A DNA stretch of 64,000 bases from Alphaproteobacteria bacterium. Its GTDB lineage: Bacteria > Pseudomonadota > Alphaproteobacteria > UBA8366. This document shows, in pieces, positions 1,872 through 41,313 of the stretch. Location: assembly GCA_041557595.1 (NCBI GenBank), contig JBFFGE010000003.1:1656-65655 (forward strand). Direction: 5' to 3'. The notes beneath the pieces are model-generated. The model ran no database searches and had not been told where the DNA came from. It worked only from the letters and a program-made list of their open reading frames with translations. Every line of letters begins with the position of its first letter. Position 1 is the stretch's first letter. A program made the translations under genes and the position numbers.

Positions 1872-2495
1872 ATGCTGAAGATCCTGGGACGCAAGACCTC
1901 GTCGAACGTCATGGAAGTGCTTTGGCTCTGTGCCGAACTTGGCATCGAGTATGATCGCGAAGATGTCGGCGGGCCGTTCGGCCGCAATGACGAGCCGGAA
2001 TATCTCGCCAAAAATCCGAACGGCCTGGTGCCGACCATCGAGGACGGCGATCTCATCCTCTGGGAATCCAATGCGATCGTCCGCTACCTCGCGGCGAAAC
2101 ACGGCGCGGGATCGCCGATCTGGCCGGACGATTTGCAGGCGCGTGCCGCGGCGGACAAGTGGATGGACTGGCAGCTCTCAAGGGTGGCGCCAATGATTAC
2201 GCCGATCTTCTGGAACCTGGTGCGCACGCCCGAGCCGGACCGCAACATGGATGCGGTCGCGGCCGCCATTAAATCGGGCTATGCGGTCTGGGGCATTCTG
2301 GACGCCCAGTTGTCGAAAACCGACTTCGTCGCCGGCAATGATTTTACGGTCGGCGACATTCCCGTCGGCATTCACGCCTTTCGCTGGTTCTCGCTGGTCG
2401 ACGACCGGCCGTCGATGCCCGGGCTCGAGGCCTGGTATGCCCGGCTCCAGGACCGGCCGGCCTATCGCGAGCACTGCATGAACCCGCTGGTATAA
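1872..2495 (+). CDS. glutathione S-transferase family protein
   Basis: 207-aa ORF with GGGAGG RBS. Thioredoxin-like N-terminal domain (NPNGLVPTIEDGDLILWESNAIVRYL) plus helical C-terminal domain. Confidence 0.85.
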   Translation: MLKILGRKTSSNVMEVLWLCAELGIEYDREDVGGPFGRNDEPEYLAKNPNGLVPTIEDGDLILWESNAIVRYLAAKHGAGSPIWPDDLQARAAADKWMDWQLSRVAPMITPIFWNLVRTPEPDRNMDAVAAAIKSGYAVWGILDAQLSKTDFVAGNDFTVGDIPVGIHAFRWFSLVDDRPSMPGLEAWYARLQDRPAYREHCMNPLV

Positions 2496-2556
2496 GGGCA
2501 ATCCGGTCCTTGCCATCGCGATGGCGTTGAATAGAGTCTAAGAAAAGGAGGACGCA

Positions 2557-2880
2557 ATGGTCGGACCGAGACGGGTACACGATATGGGGGGCCTCGATGC
2601 GGGGCCGGTGCCGCAGGAAGGGCATCAGCACGAGGCCTGGGAGAAACGCGTCGATGCCATTCGGATGCTGTGCGCGAAGTACGACCTGCTGCGCACCGAC
2701 GAGATGCGCCGCAACATCGAGGACCTCGGTCCCGGGGTGTATGACGAGCTCGGCTATTACGAACGCTGGTGCGCGGCGATCACCAATGTGCTGCTGCAGA
2801 AGAGCGTGATTTCGGTCGACGAGCTGGGCCGCAAGATGAAAGAGGTCGAAGACCGCTGGGAGAAGGCGCGCGCGGAATGA
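2557..2880 (+). CDS. nitrile hydratase family, beta-subunit N-terminal-half protein (split beta)
   Basis: 107 aa with strong AAGGAGG RBS. Shows the beta N-terminal pattern HDMGG...WEKR...D..R..IE.L.P..Y....YYERW. The stop overlaps the next start (ATGA at 2877-2880). Confidence 0.8.
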   Translation: MVGPRRVHDMGGLDAGPVPQEGHQHEAWEKRVDAIRMLCAKYDLLRTDEMRRNIEDLGPGVYDELGYYERWCAAITNVLLQKSVISVDELGRKMKEVEDRWEKARAE

Positions 2881-3176
2881 GCGAGCAATTCACCATCGGA
2901 GACCGGGTGCGGGTGCGCCGCGCCTATCCGCCGGGCCATGTCCGGGCGCCCTACTTCACCCGCGGCAAGACCGGCGTGGTTACGGCGATCGCCGGGCATT
3001 ACCGCAATCCGGAAGATTTGGCCTATGGCCGCTACGACGGCGAAATCCTGCCGCTCTACCGCGTGCGCTTCGAGCAGGCGGATTTGTGGGCGGAGTATCA
3101 AGGCGGTCCGAAGGACAGCACGATTGTCGACGTCTATGAGAATTGGTTGGAACCCGAGAAAGGAGGCGGCCGATGA
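2877..3176 (+). CDS. nitrile hydratase family, beta-subunit C-terminal (SH3-like) half protein (split beta)
   Basis: 99 aa. FTIGDRVRV...PGHVRAPYFTRGKTGVV...YRVRF...LW resembles the C-terminal barrel of NHase beta. ATGA overlaps on both sides (2877-2880 and 3173-3176). Confidence 0.75.
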   Translation: MSEQFTIGDRVRVRRAYPPGHVRAPYFTRGKTGVVTAIAGHYRNPEDLAYGRYDGEILPLYRVRFEQADLWAEYQGGPKDSTIVDVYENWLEPEKGGGR

Positions 3177-3838
3177 GCAGCCCCGACGAACACGTCCATG
3201 AGCATGACCACGACCACGATCATGACCACGACCGGACGTGTCAACCCGATATCGAGGATTCGCCCTATTCGCACTATCAGGTCATGGCGCAGGCGTTGGG
3301 CGAGGTGCTGATCGACAAGGGGATCATCACCGCCGATGAGCTGCGCGAACAGATCGAAGTGCAGGATTCCCGCAGCCCGGCCGAAGGGGCGAAACTGATC
3401 GCCCGCGCCTGGACGGATCCGGAATTCAAGGCGCAGTTCATGGCCGACGTGAATGCCGCCGCCGAATCGATGGGCGTGCCGGCCGGCGACATTCCGATCC
3501 GGGCGGTCGAGAACACGGCCGAGGTGCACAACGTGATCGTCTGCACCTTGTGTTCCTGCTATCCGCGCGGACTGCTCGGCGTGCCGCCGGACTGGTATAA
3601 ATCGCGGGCCTATCGCAGCCGAACCGTTCGCGAACCGCGCGCCATCCTGGCGGAATTCGGCACCGAGTTGCCGGACGATTTCGAAGTCCGGGTGCATGAC
3701 AGCACCGCCGACCTCCGGTACATCGTTCTGCCGATGCGGCCGGACGGGACGGACGGGATGGACGAGGCGTCGCTGGAGGCGCTGGTCAGCCGGGACTGCA
3801 TGATCGGCGTATCTCTGCCGCGTCGCCCGAAGGCGTGA
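3173..3838 (+). CDS. nitrile hydratase alpha-subunit-like / thiocyanate hydrolase gamma-like metal-centre subunit, cobalt-type motif
   Basis: 221 aa. The metal-binding claw VCTLCSCYP is encoded at 3542-3559, followed by PPDWYKSRAYRSRTVREPR. The N-terminus carries EHVHEHDHDHDHDHD. Confidence 0.85.
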   Translation: MSSPDEHVHEHDHDHDHDHDRTCQPDIEDSPYSHYQVMAQALGEVLIDKGIITADELREQIEVQDSRSPAEGAKLIARAWTDPEFKAQFMADVNAAAESMGVPAGDIPIRAVENTAEVHNVIVCTLCSCYPRGLLGVPPDWYKSRAYRSRTVREPRAILAEFGTELPDDFEVRVHDSTADLRYIVLPMRPDGTDGMDEASLEALVSRDCMIGVSLPRRPKA

Positions 3839-9072: not shown

Positions 9073-10806
9073 ATGGAATATGAGGCGGCGCTAAAGGCGA
9101 TTCGAAAAGGCCTGCGCTGGCCGGGCAGTCTGTCTCGCTTGGCCCGGCGTGGCAATCGCGGCCGCCTCGATCCGGCCGGGCGTATCCAGCCCGCGACGCC
9201 GCCGCCGAAAAAGCGGCGCCTGATGTCGCCCCTGACTCGGCGAATCCTGACGGTAAATGTTGTCGCCCTGCTGATCCCGATCGGCGGGCTTCTTTATGTT
9301 GGCCCCTATCGCGATACCTTGATCGACGCGGAGCTCGAATCCCTGCGCAGCCAGGGCGAAATGATCGCCGGCGCGATCGGCGAAAGCGCGATCGAGATCA
9401 CGCCGGCGGGCGGCCAGTTCATCGACCTGGAACCCGCCCGCCATATCGTCCGGCGCCTCAGCGCGGCGTCGCGCGTGCGTTCGCGGCTGTTCCTCAATTC
9501 CGGTGAAATGGTCGCGGACAGCAGCCAGCTGCTGGGTGGCCGCTGGGTCGTGCAGGTCGAGGCGCTGCCGCCGCCCCGCGAATCGAACTGGGCGCTGGAC
9601 TGGCTGATCGACAGCATCGATTTCGCCTTGGGATGGTTGTCCTACGGCGAAAAATTGGAGCCGTATCGCGAACGGGCGGACCAGCGCGCGGATGATTATC
9701 CGGAGGTGCAGCGGGCCTTTTCGGGCGAGATCATCGGCGTGGTCCGGTCCGGCGGCACCAGCGGGTACATGCTCACCGTGTCGATCCCGGTGCAGCGCTA
9801 CCGTCAGGTGATCGGCGTGCTGTTGCTGGCGAATGACGGCATCGAAATCGAGGCGTCGGTGCGCAATATCCGTCTCACTGTGCTCGCGGTGTTTGCCGGC
9901 GCGTTCGTCATCACCATCCTGCTGTCGCTCTACCTGGCGCGGACGATCGCCCAGCCGGTGCTGCGGCTTGCGGTCGCGGCGGAACGCGTGCGCCGCGGCT
10001 ATGGCACCAAGACGGAACGCATTCCCGATTTCACCAACCGGGGCGATGAAATCGGCGAGCTCTCGGGCGCCTTGCGCGAAATGACCGACGCCTTGCAGCA
10101 GCGCATGGATGCTATCGAACGATTCGCCGCCGATGTCAGCCATGAAATCAAGAATCCCCTGACCTCACTGCGCAGCGCGGTCGAAACCGCGGCCCGCGTG
10201 CCCGATACCCAGCAGCAGCGCCGCCTGATGGCGGTCATTCTGGAAGACGTGCAACGGCTCGACCGGCTGATCACCGACATTTCCAACGCGTCGCGGCTGG
10301 ATTCCGAGTTGAGCCGGGCCGAGACCGAACCGGTGGATATCGGTCGCATGCTGCAGGCTTTGGTGGATATGCACGAAACCACGCGCGGCCCGGGCACGCC
10401 CCGCTTGACGGTGCGGGTACGGAACGAGCGCGCCTTGCGGGTTCAAGGGGTCGAGGACCGGCTGGTTCAGGTGATGCGCAACCTGATCGCCAACGCACTG
10501 AGTTTCAGCCCCCCCGACGGCGAAATCGTGCTGACGGCGGCACGCATCAAGAATTATGTCGAGGTGGCCATCGAAGACAGCGGGCCCGGCATACCGGAGG
10601 CCAAGGTCAGCGCTATCTTCGACCGTTTCTATACGGAGCGCCCCAAGGGCGAAAAGTTCGGCAAGCATTCCGGGCTCGGTCTGTCCATTTCGAAACAGAT
10701 CATCGAGGCCCATGGCGGCACCATCACCGCCGAGAACCGCCATGCGGACGGCGATCCGGAGACCGTCGCGGGCGCCCGGTTCGTGGTGCGCCTGCCGGTC
10801 GTTTGA
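9073..10806 (+). CDS. chvG: sensor histidine kinase ChvG (ExoS/BvrS type)
   Basis: 577-aa ORF with two TM segments, HAMP, H-box FAADVSHEIKNPLTSL and N/G boxes. The start is uncertain; a long basic N-terminus is typical of this family. Confidence 0.88.
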   Translation: MEYEAALKAIRKGLRWPGSLSRLARRGNRGRLDPAGRIQPATPPPKKRRLMSPLTRRILTVNVVALLIPIGGLLYVGPYRDTLIDAELESLRSQGEMIAGAIGESAIEITPAGGQFIDLEPARHIVRRLSAASRVRSRLFLNSGEMVADSSQLLGGRWVVQVEALPPPRESNWALDWLIDSIDFALGWLSYGEKLEPYRERADQRADDYPEVQRAFSGEIIGVVRSGGTSGYMLTVSIPVQRYRQVIGVLLLANDGIEIEASVRNIRLTVLAVFAGAFVITILLSLYLARTIAQPVLRLAVAAERVRRGYGTKTERIPDFTNRGDEIGELSGALREMTDALQQRMDAIERFAADVSHEIKNPLTSLRSAVETAARVPDTQQQRRLMAVILEDVQRLDRLITDISNASRLDSELSRAETEPVDIGRMLQALVDMHETTRGPGTPRLTVRVRNERALRVQGVEDRLVQVMRNLIANALSFSPPDGEIVLTAARIKNYVEVAIEDSGPGIPEAKVSAIFDRFYTERPKGEKFGKHSGLGLSISKQIIEAHGGTITAENRHADGDPETVAGARFVVRLPVV

Positions 10807-10913
10807 CGGTGGCGATGGTCACGGCGGCCGGACTTGCGCCAAGGAATTAACGCTTGCATCCCTGCCCTTCCGACGGATTGACTTCATCTTCAGACGGGCT
10901 CAGGCTTTGCGGC

Positions 10914-11342
10914 ATGGAAACTGTCCACGGCACAACCGTTGCAATCGCGGGCGCGGGCGTGTTGCTGCGCGGCCCGTCGGCCAGCGGCAAATCGGATCTC
11001 GCTTTGCGCCTGATCGATGACGGCGCGATGCTTGTTGCGGACGACCGTACGGTGCTGGCGCCGGGTGACGGATCCGTGGTGGCGTCCGCGCCGCCGTCGA
11101 TCGCCGGCCGGATAGAGGTGCGCGGCCTCGGCATTGTGCCGGTCGCGGCGATCGATACGGTGCCGTTGCGGCTGGTGGTGGATTTGATCGAGCCGGAACG
11201 GGCCGAGCGCATGCCGCCGGCGCGCCATGTCGACCTGATGGGGGCGGAGCTTCCGTTGCTGCGCCTCCCCGCGTTTCATGCGTCGACCCCCTCGAAGATC
11301 AGGCTGGCCCTGCGGGTGCCGGCCGGCGAGATCATACGATGA
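10914..11342 (+). CDS. hprK: short alphaproteobacterial HPr kinase/phosphorylase (C-terminal domain only)
   Basis: METVHGT start at 10914 and P-loop GPSASGKS. ATGA overlap with rapZ. Confidence 0.85.
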   Translation: METVHGTTVAIAGAGVLLRGPSASGKSDLALRLIDDGAMLVADDRTVLAPGDGSVVASAPPSIAGRIEVRGLGIVPVAAIDTVPLRLVVDLIEPERAERMPPARHVDLMGAELPLLRLPAFHASTPSKIRLALRVPAGEIIR

Positions 11343-38318: not shown

Positions 38319-38495
38319 GCCATGGATTCCTTTGGCTCGATCCGGTGCAGTCTCTACCATAAAGCCGTTGCACCGTCATAGATTTGCGACATTCGCCGGC
38401 GCGACGGCCTGAAAAGACAAAAAGCCCTTGATAGATTGTAGAGATCGTGGCAATTGGCACGCGCCTTCCAGCCGGCCAATTTTAAGGAGATTGCC

Positions 38496-38846
38496 GTGGC
38501 GAAACCGGAATGGGGAACCAAGCGCCTGTGTACGGGCTGTGGCGACCGTTTCTATGATTTGCAACGCGATCCGATCGTGTGTCCGAAATGCGGTGTCGTT
38601 TTCGATCCCGAGCAGGTGACCCGTCTCAAACGGGCCCGCAACTCACCGCCACCCGAGCCGAAGCCGAAGCCGGCAGTCGTAGCCGCCAATGACGACGCAG
38701 CCGCCGTTGTCGCGGACGACGATATCGATGATATCGATGACGACGACGCCGATGATATAATTCCGGACGAGGATGATGATAGCAGTGACGATATTGACGA
38801 GTTGGTCGAAGGTGTCGAGGTCGTCAAGGAGAAACCCGACGAATAG
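38496..38846 (+). CDS. TIGR02300-like (FYDLN_acid) zinc-ribbon protein with polyacidic tail
   Basis: GTG 38496 lies 6 nt after AAGGAG. CTGCGDRFYDLQRDPIVCPKCG zinc ribbon, then a D/E-rich C-terminus. Confidence 0.8.
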   Translation: MAKPEWGTKRLCTGCGDRFYDLQRDPIVCPKCGVVFDPEQVTRLKRARNSPPPEPKPKPAVVAANDDAAAVVADDDIDDIDDDDADDIIPDEDDDSSDDIDELVEGVEVVKEKPDE

Positions 38847-38956
38847 ACGGCCCGTTCCCGGCAGGTGAATTTTCCCTTGCCTCCGGACGGCGCGTATTTA
38901 TAACGGTCCCGTCCCACCAGGTGCCAAACCGGCCGCGGCGGGCGCGACCATTCCAT

Positions 38957-39032
<76 letters not shown>

Positions 39033-39126
39033 TCATTTCAATAGGTTGGGTGCGCTTAGCTGGGCCTCTGCCCTTTCAGTAAGCACATAGTAAGCACGTC
39101 TACCTAATTTCGCGACCAGTCGGAGA

Positions 39127-39143
39127 GGGGGTGCCCCCCCCCC
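39127..39143. repeat. homopolymer pair G5-TG-C10
   Basis: Read directly: GGGGG TG CCCCCCCCCC. The C10 run (39134-39143) forms the 5' edge of repeat copy A, whereas copy B has only C4. Confidence 0.9.
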
Positions 39144-39237
39144 TCGGCCTTCGCGTGGTTACGCTAGTTCCACCTCTCTAGCGGCCCCCAAAAACTCGCC
39201 GCTTTAGCGGAGCCGAAATACTCGGGAGTCCGCTTTC
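39140..39237 (+). repeat. 98-bp dispersed repeat, copy A (two tandem hairpins)
   Basis: Gap-free hand alignment with 39909-40006 gives 9 mismatches in 98 positions. Contains AGCGGC...GCCGCT and AGCGGA...TCCGCT stems, the second followed by TTC. Confidence 0.85.
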
Positions 39238-39398
39238 GCGTGTATTACGTCCAGTCTTCCCCCAACATCGGGTACTGGGTCAGTTTGAAAATGGGCCGGG
39301 TTGACATATTCTGGCAGCTTGATCCCGATCAACGCATAGACCTGTCCGGCGTTCCAATTTCCTTATCGTTGAACTTGATGTCTTGAACGGAGCCAAAG

Positions 39399-39818
39399 AT
39401 GGTCGAAAAGTCCCACACTGCTGGTTCGTGGCAAAATCTCTACGAGCCACTCCGCGCATTCGGTCAAACTGTCGCCGATTGGTTTGCACCGCGTTCCGAC
39501 GCATCCGCGATGGAAGACTTCTACGAAATCAATGTCGAACTACCTGGTGTAAAAGCTGAAGACATTGATGTGTCGATGCATGACAACAGTCTCGTCGTTC
39601 GTGGTGAGAAGCGGTTCGAACGCGAGGAAAAGGGACGGACCTACTACTTCTCTGAACGAGAGCACGGTTCTTTCCAGAGGACATTTCGGCTCCCGCCCGA
39701 TGCGGACAGCGAAAAGATCGAAGCGACGTACAGTGACGGCGTTATGTGCTTGAAGATTGCCAAGCGGGCATCATCGGCGGCGGCGGCGGGCAAAAAGATC
39801 AAGGTCCGCACTCCCTAG
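39399..39818 (+). CDS. Hsp20/alpha-crystallin family small heat-shock protein
   Basis: 139 aa with alpha-crystallin domain pattern (YEINVELPGVKAEDIDVSMHDNSLVVRGEK...GSFQRTFRLP...A.Y.DGVL.L.I.K). Confidence 0.9.
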   Translation: MVEKSHTAGSWQNLYEPLRAFGQTVADWFAPRSDASAMEDFYEINVELPGVKAEDIDVSMHDNSLVVRGEKRFEREEKGRTYYFSEREHGSFQRTFRLPPDADSEKIEATYSDGVMCLKIAKRASSAAAAGKKIKVRTP

Positions 39819-39908
39819 GTCAAGGAGTTGAGTTGCCACCTTTAGCCGGATCCAGGTCCTAAATTAAAAAACTGACAATCTGCGTCAAAGCAGCAATCCC
39901 TTTGGTTT

Positions 39909-40006
39909 CCCCTCGGCCTTCGCGGCGTTGCGCTTGTTTGCCCTCTCTAGCGGCCCCCAAATACTCGCCGCTCTAGCGGAGCCGAAATACTCGGGAGTCC
40001 GCTTTC
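39909..40006 (+). repeat. 98-bp dispersed repeat, copy B
   Basis: Direct-orientation copy of 39140-39237, 91 nt downstream of the hsp20 stop. Confidence 0.85.
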
Positions 40007-40109
40007 TCCCGGATTAGGCGCGCGGCTGGCGTGTTGCCAGTGTGCGTTGCCGCGGACTTCCAGAGCCGGATCGTTCGGCATGATCTTCCTCAATGCGAGA
40101 AGATGATTT

Positions 40110-40385
40110 GTGATGGGATTATACCAAATGCGTTGGTTTTCCCGTGCAATCGTATTGGGCTGTTTTTTGTTGCTAATGACGGCTTGCAGTCGAGATGAAA
40201 ATCGAGACCGCTGGTGGCCTGCGCCTGACCCTCTCCCCTTTGATATTGCCTTATTGTGCGGGGAAGCTGGACACATGGTCGCCGAATGGCAGCGGAGGCA
40301 GTATGAGGCGGACGTGAGGCGCGCGGGGTCGGCGATGGTACGCTGCGACCGTCAAGAATCTGCGGGAACGGGCCGGGCGGATTGA
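40110..40385 (+). CDS. hypothetical small lipoprotein
   Basis: 91-aa ORF in the AT-richer islet. Has a signal with a lipobox-like LLMTAC (alternative start ATG 40128). No family recognised. Confidence 0.4.
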   Translation: MMGLYQMRWFSRAIVLGCFLLLMTACSRDENRDRWWPAPDPLPFDIALLCGEAGHMVAEWQRRQYEADVRRAGSAMVRCDRQESAGTGRAD

Positions 40386-40422
40386 AAAGCGGCAGGAAGC
40401 GGCTTGAAAGTAGGAGGGCGGG

Positions 40423-40812
40423 ATGCGCGTGTTAATTGGAGCGATGCTGGTCTATGTCGTCGCTTCAACGCCTGTATCTGCCGAAGAAAAGTCACTCGAT
40501 GAGCGATTGCGGGAACGGCAGCAGGAACGAGAAAAGGCGAAAGAGGTCTTCTTCTGCACGGATACGAACGTTGCGGGCCTCGTGTGGGACAAGAAGAACC
40601 CGCAAGGTGACGGGCGAGTGCAAAAGTTTAACGGTTTTCGCTACACCATGAGGATCAATTCAAAGACAGCGCGTTTGATGACAATCACCGCAGGCGGACG
40701 CGCAGGTCGAGAAGTTTCTCTCCAGCGGCGGTTCAAGCCGGCGTCGTGCAATCCGCCAAAAGAGGACAAGAATGCCGGCGCCAAAGAAAGCGGGAGCAAC
40801 CCAGAACGGTAA
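40423..40812 (+). CDS. hypothetical secreted protein (3' end uncertain)
   Basis: 129-aa ORF with a signal peptide (AST PVSA-EE). The last roughly 50 codons overlap the convergent membrane-protein ORF and look like read-through sequence. Confidence 0.4.
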   Translation: MRVLIGAMLVYVVASTPVSAEEKSLDERLRERQQEREKAKEVFFCTDTNVAGLVWDKKNPQGDGRVQKFNGFRYTMRINSKTARLMTITAGGRAGREVSLQRRFKPASCNPPKEDKNAGAKESGSNPER

Positions 40813-41313
40813 ATCGAGCCAGGCGAAGGGTGTCAGTAACAACGCCCATCCGGGCAAATACTGGCTGATCCAGATCCCGCGCGTAACGACGAAGCGCGGA
40901 TGGGAAAAGGCGTCGGGTATGGGCGGCGCAGGCACGGTCAACTTGCCAAGAGCGAATGTCTCCGCCTGCATCATCGCGGCGTAGATATCGTCTGAAATTG
41001 GAAACCCCTGTAGCCAGAGTCCACCCACGAGCCATCCGACACCAGTGGCGAGCAAGGCCCATTTCCAGACGCCGAGCCGGCCGAACCGGTTGCCGACGCG
41101 CGCGACAAAGCCGGTGATATCCGGCGCGCTCTCCCATTTCCAGCAGGTCAGACCGCTAACGAGGAGGGCGAGGAGCGCAAACCCGGCGGTCCAGTGGGGC
41201 GAGAATGACGTTACGCCGACGACCCAGGGCGCCGCCAAACCGAGCAGCGCCAACGGGACAAGCCGAGCCAATTGCCGGACGATTGGCATTTGAGGAGGCA
41301 TCACCATCTCCAA
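40660..41313 (-). pseudogene. truncated GT-C-fold (ArnT/PMT-like) membrane glycosyltransferase, N-terminal roughly 190 residues only
   Basis: TM helices plus a first-loop pattern SDDIYAAMMQAE...GKL...SQYLPGWALLLTPF...LVLFWRIARRRL resemble the N-terminus of 450-600-aa GT-C enzymes. The ORF then degenerates (ERNFSTCASACGDCHQTRCL) and stops. Confidence 0.4.

Follow-up and report, generated by a model that had tools for sequence, protein, structure and literature searches.

Extragenic mosaics of short palindromes have been described as repetitive extragenic palindromes (REP), bacterial interspersed mosaic elements (BIME) and Rhizobium-specific intergenic mosaic elements (RIME), and REPs are documented as preferred targets of IS110/IS1111-type insertion sequences (PMC1525189, PMC11187229). 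We were interested in how a repeat of comparable architecture from an alphaproteobacterium relates to these and other known systems. The repeat occurs as two direct copies on either side of a small heat shock gene, hsp20, downstream of a tRNA-Ala gene, in a stretch of 64,000 nt of the assembly GCA_041557595.1 (contig JBFFGE010000003.1, positions 1,656 to 65,655), referred to here at its full length as the window. An earlier note, made from the letters of the window, had drawn attention to the pair and its hairpins and had offered four candidate roles, namely a small RNA family, a terminator or processing module, a REP/RIME-like element, or recombination substrates able to excise or duplicate hsp20.

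The analysis described here leads to a rare mosaic repeat with a sequence-constrained 3' block, which is found in accessory DNA at rearrangement-prone sites, and we place the element among the intergenic mosaic repeats in general, as a minor new member. The two copies are tentatively read as members of a lineage-restricted, low-copy and non-coding repeat with a role as 3' trailer or at transcript 3' ends, similar to REP/BIME elements; this is the reading that we prefer, yet we would not put it at even chances.

The repeat pair and its relatives

Over the 98-nt core the two copies align without gaps and with nine mismatches, exactly as reported in the earlier note. The mismatches fall at element positions 17, 18, 22, 27, 31, 32, 33, 54 and 65, the longest block identical in both copies measures 33 nt, and the pair was recovered by BLAST with E = 4e-31; a 30-mer of the element gave no chance match in 100 shuffles. 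A fainter likeness runs on for about 10 nt beyond the core, to 39247 and 40016, and a repeat search returned a single two-copy family of 108 nt (39140-39247 and 39909-40016) with 88% identity. Likewise, the placement of each copy about 100 nt behind a plus-strand gene was confirmed, with copy 1 starting 107 nt past the end of tRNA-Ala (39032) and copy 2 starting 90 nt past the end of the hsp20 stop codon (39818), and so was the clustering of the mismatches, all nine of which lie within the first 65 nt (P ~0.02) and seven in positions 16-34. The coordinates of the pair, of its hairpins and of the neighbouring features are collected in Table 1.

Table 1. Coordinates in the window of the repeat copies, their predicted hairpins and the adjoining features.
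Feature	Position	Strand	Basis or remark
Repeat copy 1, 98-nt core	39140..39237	+	Alignment and BLAST
Repeat copy 2, 98-nt core	39909..40006	+	Alignment and BLAST; weak similarity to 40016
5' stem-loop, copy 1 (element positions 16-34)	39155..39173	+	Fold; 7 of 9 mismatches inside
5' stem-loop, copy 2	39924..39942	+	Fold
Hairpin 1, copy 1: AGCGGC, 12-nt loop CCCCAAAAACTC, GCCGCT	39180..39203	+	First 26-nt tandem unit
Hairpin 2, copy 1: AGCGGA, N17, TCCGCT, then TTC	39206..39234	+	Second tandem unit
Hairpin 1, copy 2	39949..39972	+	
Hairpin 2, copy 2	39975..40003	+	
tRNA-Ala(GGC), integration hotspot	38957..39032	+	ARAGORN, Rfam
tRNA-Ala trailer	39033..39135	+	Comparison with loci L049 and L048
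hsp20 unit: upstream region and coding sequence 39399-39818 (PF00011)	39316..39818	+	Pfam, homologue comparison

An assembly duplication, which the earlier note had named as a possible explanation of the repeat, was ruled out, as the copies are 9% apart and the order copy 1, hsp20, copy 2 recurs in contigs of GCA_041573455.1, GCA_041556955.1 and GCA_041571955.1, which belong to the same species and are 99.96-99.98% identical. The same arrangement in three independent assemblies of metagenome-assembled genomes (MAGs) is therefore no artefact. Short Logan contigs begin at 39977, within the block identical in both copies, which is the behaviour of a k-mer graph at a true repeat. The poly-C tract at the 5' edge of copy 1 (39134-39143) counts 10 C in the window and in contigs L001 and L042 and 11 C in L002/L064, either due to homopolymer length variation or due to sequencing error.

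Within the window blastn-short and nhmmer found no further copy, and neither did a covariance model run unfiltered. Metagenome and genome collections were covered by exact-match scans with two overlapping 18-mers from hairpin 2, followed by an nhmmer filter, a procedure that diverged copies would escape; the scan of genome contigs did not return the window's own copies, and copy counts given here refer to the 64-kb window and the collections. These scans led to two real loci. The first, L016 (Ga0224508_10004517), carries a full-length copy ~171 nt downstream of a tRNA-Ser(TGA), and the second, L022/L024 from a Rhodospirillaceae MAG, a partial copy with three loop motifs and an almost intact hairpin 2 in which the hairpin-1 stems are absent; 2-3 kb from this copy there are an IS6-type transposase and a gene fragment. 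Further copies, the absence of which the earlier note would have counted against its proposal, thus exist in other organisms, while plasmids, phages and viral contigs gave no copy. In all three cases with a known upstream gene the element lies downstream of that gene on the same strand, which makes three of four cases overall, and outside the window mobile-element genes adjoin the copies or lie near them.

Pairwise comparison over 98 nt showed 94.9% identity between copy 1 and the L016 copy, 92.9% between copy 2 and the L016 copy, and 90.8% between copy 1 and copy 2. The L016 copy is therefore nearer to each window copy than these are to each other, indicating that the pair is not a recent local duplication, and by their divergence the window copies are old paralogues. 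All 10 variable sites of the three full-length copies lie in the first 65 nt (P ~0.013), and the 3' third is under sequence-level constraint across organisms. The homology between copy 1 and L016 exceeds the core, extending over 39138-39271 by BLAST, and a GGGGGTG motif from 39127 is also common to both; copy 2 contains neither this upstream motif nor the third hairpin region that is found after copy 1 and in L016. A family member would then consist of the 98-nt core with an extent of up to ~145 nt, as a mosaic of a 5' stem-loop, a C/U-rich linker (CCTCTCT) and two tandem 26-nt hairpin units, and its sites would be the 3' flank of tRNA-Ala in the window and elsewhere the 3' flank of tRNA-Ser or DNA near transposases.

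Hairpins and transcription signals

Both consecutive stems of the earlier description, followed by the TTC end, were found in both copies, and only its 13-nt loop of hairpin 1 had to be corrected to 12 nt. Hairpins 1 and 2 turned out to be homologous 26-nt tandem units of the form TAGCGG-NN-CCSAAAWACTCG, with 16-17 of 22 positions in common at the 26-nt offset, and no other family of AGCGGN/NCCGCT hairpins occurs in the 64-kb window. The most conserved block is hairpin 2, without a difference among copy 1, copy 2 and L016 and almost unchanged in L024. Both hairpins are invariant among all full-length copies and therefore provide no covariation evidence for or against pairing. In L024 the hairpin-1 stems are gone and the loop motif CCCAAAAACTC is retained, which points to conservation of the sequence and not of hairpin 1.

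Compensatory changes were detected only in the 5' stem-loop, the part that had been called variable before. Four pairs change between the window copies with the pairing kept (U-A to G-C, G-C to C-G, G-C to G-U and A-U to G-U), and L016 breaks one pair (A.C). Minimum-energy folds also pair element positions 5-15 with the left arm of hairpin 2, as an alternative to hairpin 2, and this helix is invariant as well. The minus strand folds about equally well. An internal periodicity of ~93 nt, with unit 1 compared to the following sequence, was discarded, being marginal in copy 1 (2 of 300 shuffles) and absent in copy 2 and L016.

No consensus promoter was found inside or just upstream of either copy, and no canonical terminator between the upstream genes and the copies. 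Similarly, a scan of the plus strand at 38400-40600 for a GC-rich stem-loop followed by at least five T in 8 positions gave no terminator-like site. A known small RNA family, one of the roles considered earlier, was not supported by the Rfam scan, in which only tRNA-Ala passed its gathering threshold. At E<=10 the sole overlap with the repeat was a sub-threshold match to tmRNA_permuted (39005-39220, 32.6 bits compared to a threshold of 47), which is explained by the T-arm and acceptor strand of tRNA-Ala (CGGCUCC), as this can pair with GGAGCCG in hairpin 2. A two-piece tmRNA was hence rejected and the match judged coincidental, the more so as ARAGORN found no tmRNA. A small open reading frame (ORF) on the minus strand (peptide ...GLPSISAPLE...) was also rejected, as it has no conserved start or N-terminal context and is merely hairpin 2 translated.

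The tRNA-Ala flank, the hsp20 unit and neighbouring insertion sequences

The DNA behind tRNA-Ala was found to be hypervariable. Locus L049, from the same metagenome as L016 and with flanks 85.5% identical to the window, has a trailer identical at 102 of 103 positions (L049 2301-2403), and its homology stops at 39135/39136, the 5' edge of copy 1. In L048, which is 95.7% identical over the aroA-FYDLN-tRNA region, homology ends 10 nt past the tRNA (L048 1328 onward), and different DNA follows without the trailer, hsp20 or the repeat. The near-identity of the trailer in L049 but its absence from the closer L048 suggests either a recent exchange or a strong constraint. In the sister strain GCA_041556955.1 (L002/L064 1-282), AT-rich foreign DNA replaces everything upstream of 38984, a position in the anticodon stem of the tRNA, and two short-read contigs of the species (L043 and L046) end at 38983 and 38984. 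We take this replacement, together with the contig ends, to be the signature of a genomic island that part of the population carries within tRNA-Ala, and judging from these comparisons one species records the turnover of the tRNA-Ala 3' flank between close relatives. The GC content is 51-58% over 39.0-40.8 kb compared to 63% for the window.

Tandem 9-mers were observed in both tRNA trailers. In the window AGTAAGCAC occurs twice (39078-39086 and 39089-39097; period 11), 46 nt past tRNA-Ala, and in L016 TAGTACCAC occurs twice (9882-9890 and 9894-9902; period 12), 55 nt past tRNA-Ser. They could be candidate protein-binding sites, for example of the arm type. Homology of the two trailers was rejected, as their overall similarity is not significant. 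A tRNA-derived repeat or an att site containing tRNA sequence was rejected too, with no significant similarity of the repeat to tRNA-Ala or tRNA-Ser and no second 3' fragment of tRNA-Ala in the window.

Homologues of hsp20 with 76-84% nucleotide identity were found in four other contexts, all without the repeat, and the closest homology covers only 39316-39817; homologues at 73-76% identity bear the labels Methyloceanibacter, Hyphomicrobium and Kiloniellales. As the shared homology is limited to this segment, hsp20 with its own control region is a unit that came to lie between two copies of the repeat family, and copy 1 is, by the same comparison, no part of the hsp20 leader. A palindrome TTGATCCCGATCAA (TTGAT-N4-ATCAA) at 39319-39332, ~70 nt before the hsp20 start codon, is kept upstream of hsp20 homologues in unrelated contexts (L003, L004 and L005) and is likely an operator or promoter element. 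A ROSE thermometer was not matched at hsp20 by Rfam. The 671 bp between the copies hold the hsp20 unit only. The excision or duplication of hsp20 that the earlier note had considered received no support, as none of the contigs of the species shows a deletion or duplication variant.

After copy 2 follow ORFs at 40110-40385, 40423-40812 and, on the minus strand, 40660-41313, all without a Pfam match, the first of which opens with a lipoprotein-like signal (LLLMTAC). As the latter two overlap by ~150 nt on opposite strands, one of them is probably no gene. The five ORFs compared with Pfam (those at 39399-41313 and the FYDLN gene) gave only HSP20 and FYDLN_acid, and gene calls of the contig beyond them only an epimerase.

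An IS110-family DEDD transposase gene begins in L016 138 nt past the end of the 108-nt repeat homology (L016 10106), and an identity of the repeat with the left end of the insertion sequence (IS) or with its bridge RNA was therefore considered. IS boundaries were mapped from eight copies of one related IS and five of another, which placed the left end ~89-91 nt before the ATG and the right end ~253-272 nt after the stop codon. Subterminal inverted repeats (GTGGACGGC and GCCGTCCAC) and a long non-coding region downstream of the transposase gene indicate the IS1111 type, whose family features are as described (PMC11187229). With its left end ~89 nt before the ATG, the IS in L016 spans ~10161-11329 and starts after the repeat, directly behind the TTCCGCT arm of a further hairpin, so that the repeat lies outside the IS and the identity with its left end or bridge RNA was rejected. 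No significant match (E<=1) to a profile hidden Markov model of the repeat was obtained in 63 collected loci, IS-bearing ones included, and the window holds no IS110-family transposase. In other genomes the same IS family sits in REP-like hairpins of the form GTCYGCT...AGCGGAC. From these boundaries the repeat is at most a neighbour or a target of an IS110-family element and no part of it. A crude test for complementarity between the seekRNA and its target showed no common 7-mer between the IS non-coding region and the target flanks.

The IS1111-type branch itself is large (L016, L050 and L051-L063), with a downstream non-coding region of 250-270 nt and insertion right after GTCYGCT or TTCCGCT arms; for ERZ26167216, 8 of 11 recorded contigs were inspected for the IS. 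In L051 and L052 (~2483-3670), from two assemblies, the right-end non-coding segment (~296 nt) is present about four times in tandem after the transposase gene.

Candidate roles and relation to known systems

According to the preferred reading as a low-copy REP/BIME-like repeat, the hsp20 unit would lie between two old, independently diverged members and not within a fresh duplication. The element would have no promoter of its own and would be transcribed by read-through, as 3' trailer of tRNA-Ala in the case of copy 1 and of hsp20 in the case of copy 2, and its hairpins may form a structure at the 3' end that would cause pausing or termination or would protect the transcript, similar to REP/BIME-type elements. 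The strict conservation, loops included, suggests recognition of the repeated loop motif by a protein or RNA partner as well. A number of results weigh against this reading. REP-type families are normally high-copy, and here two copies were found within 64 kb. The tail of hairpin 2 is only UUU (TTTC) and fails the consensus scan, and canonical terminators do occur elsewhere in the window, so the terminator role put forward earlier was not borne out. Folding energies are ordinary compared to shuffles (z-scores of -0.8 to -2), and the covariation in the 5' stem does not reach significance, 62 of 500 shuffles being equally good for three sequences; as the hairpins are in addition invariant, the selection on structure suggested in the earlier note was not shown. 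A role as pure 3' hairpin also does not account for the lack of any variation in the loops and bulges of hairpin 2, nor for the hairpin-1 loop motif that persists in L024 without its stem.

This last point, a motif present two to three times whose sequence is kept even after loss of the stem, would fit a DNA-level protein-binding module of an integrative or mobile element, in which the 26-nt motifs and perhaps the 9-mers bind a recombinase or accessory factor, with the copies as boundaries or scars and hsp20 as cargo. Two independent comparisons show a sharp 5' edge (copy 2 with copy 1 at 39140, and L049 with the window at 39135/39136), the copies flank a single-gene unit as direct repeats, next to a tRNA with proven integration in the sister strain, the duplicated 9-mers lie with a period of 11-12 nt at similar distances from tRNA-Ala and tRNA-Ser, and copies from different organisms resemble each other more closely than the coding DNA around them does. 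We nevertheless consider such a module unlikely, as no integrase or transposase was detected among the ORFs at 39.0-42.5 kb (five Pfam-scanned ORFs and the gene calls), the repeats are without tRNA sequence and the window without a second tRNA-Ala 3' fragment, no third copy follows the next genes, no contig carries an empty-site or excised variant, the 26-nt spacing is not a helical repeat, and the two tRNA trailers lack significant overall similarity. Much the same evidence, that is the edge seen twice, the direct orientation around one gene, the occurrence at two different tRNA genes in different organisms and the likeness of the copies compared to neighbouring coding DNA, could also be claimed for a recombination or boundary site of an undescribed cassette-like system, which builds single-gene modules such as hsp20 at tRNA 3' flanks and whose recombinase, encoded elsewhere, reads the 26-nt motifs; but with no recombinase found, no third site and no empty or excised variant, this is very improbable.

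Quite unlikely in our view is also a functionless relic, left over from past recombination in the tRNA flank and conserved due to recent horizontal spread instead of selection. The low copy number and patchy distribution, the low-GC accessory DNA beside IS elements and gene fragments, the decayed third hairpin of copy 1, the truncation in L024 and the lack of a significant structural signal would all be expected for it, but the variable sites are not randomly placed (all 10 lie in the first 65 nt, and four positions vary recurrently), three copies from at least two organisms agree throughout a 33-nt block although the rest of the element differs by ~8-14% (the same 5-9 mismatches, in the first 65 nt), and L024 retains this block amid changed surroundings. 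The conserved loop motif, repeated two to three times, could instead be the seed or binding site of a trans-acting small RNA or protein sponge, together with the linker, released from the tRNA-Ala trailer and the hsp20 3' untranslated region (UTR). External transcribed spacers at tRNA 3' ends and 3' UTRs are sources of regulatory RNAs in enterobacteria, and the window copies lie 90-107 nt, the L016 copy ~171 nt, after a same-strand gene; the predicted fold leaves CCUCUCU and the C-rich loops unpaired, and the G-U pairs that copy 2 has in its 5' stem agree with the plus strand. However, neither an Rfam match nor a promoter nor a good terminator was found, the structure statistics are weak with the minus strand folding about equally well, and no target was identified, the similarity to the hsp20 ribosome-binding region being a shared 6-mer as expected by chance, which makes a released RNA distinctly unlikely. 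Least probable of all, and hardly to be expected, is a cis-acting leader or attenuator for hsp20, for the lipoprotein-like ORF at 40110 and for the ankyrin gene in L024, in which the 5' helix competes with hairpin 2. The alternative helix of positions 5-15 and the left arm of hairpin 2 does appear in the minimum-energy folds, and each copy is co-oriented with the next downstream gene, but the conserved region in front of hsp20 does not begin until 39316, 79 nt past copy 1, and occurs in relatives without the element, the competing helix is invariant among full-length copies and cannot form in L024, the z-scores are weak, and the downstream genes are mutually unrelated.

If the reading as 3' trailer holds true, the repeat is one more lineage-specific intergenic repeat and chiefly a note for annotation, with the warning that short-read assemblies break at it (39977). 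If the loop motif is read by a protein or RNA partner, the element would be of greater interest, either as a new regulatory RNA derived from a trailer or as a recombination site of a new kind that shapes tRNA-adjacent accessory DNA.

In comparison with known systems, some likenesses do not go far. Integron attC sites and Vibrio cholerae repeats are likewise ~100-nt, ~90%-identical direct repeats with hairpin potential that can bracket one co-oriented small gene, but the core boxes RYYYAAC and GTTRRRY are missing here and two tandem hairpins replace the one long imperfect palindrome; moreover, no integrase is encoded among the five ORFs scanned, there is no attI, the 'cassette' is single with no third copy of the repeat, and hsp20 has its own conserved upstream region, so that attC was rejected on reading the sequence. 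A Tn3-type inverted repeat was rejected in the same way. The template and variable repeats of diversity-generating retroelements were excluded as well, as copy 1 has an A at only four of the nine mismatches and copy 2 at none, and both copies are intergenic. Direct repeats beside a tRNA with proven integration in a sister strain recall attL/attR of tRNA islands, which differ in that the repeats here are without tRNA sequence, start 107 nt past the tRNA, come without an integrase and enclose in 671 bp the hsp20 unit only. To the bridge RNA or seekRNA of IS110/IS1111 elements the repeat is similar by the position of its L016 copy directly upstream of a DEDD transposase gene, but it lies outside the IS, the long non-coding region is downstream of the transposase, and the window has no such transposase. 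With trailer RNAs and intrinsic terminators the element shares its location 90-171 nt after a same-strand tRNA or mRNA and its end in a GC-rich hairpin followed by U's, differing in the U-tract of 3 nt, the failed consensus scan and the lack of an Rfam family.

Among the four roles proposed earlier, the REP/RIME-like option stands nearest, by architecture and setting only; no sequence match to rhizobial replicons was found, and the high copy number of such families was not seen in the 64 kb covered. REP/BIME are dispersed in tens to hundreds of copies per genome; here the 64 kb hold two copies, the public collections gave two further loci, and the palindromes are tandem and direct instead of inverted. 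For RIME, copy 1 and the L016 element gave no match in a sensitive blastn search against 72,556 plasmids, with no RIME consensus compared directly. What the element has in common with REP/BIME and RIME is the extragenic mosaic of short imperfect palindromes, ~100 nt in length, between co-directional genes at the 3' side of transcription units, with all hairpins intergenic in both copies. As with REPs, which are targeted by such elements (PMC1525189, PMC11187229), an IS110/IS1111-family insertion sequence has inserted in L016 directly after a palindrome arm.

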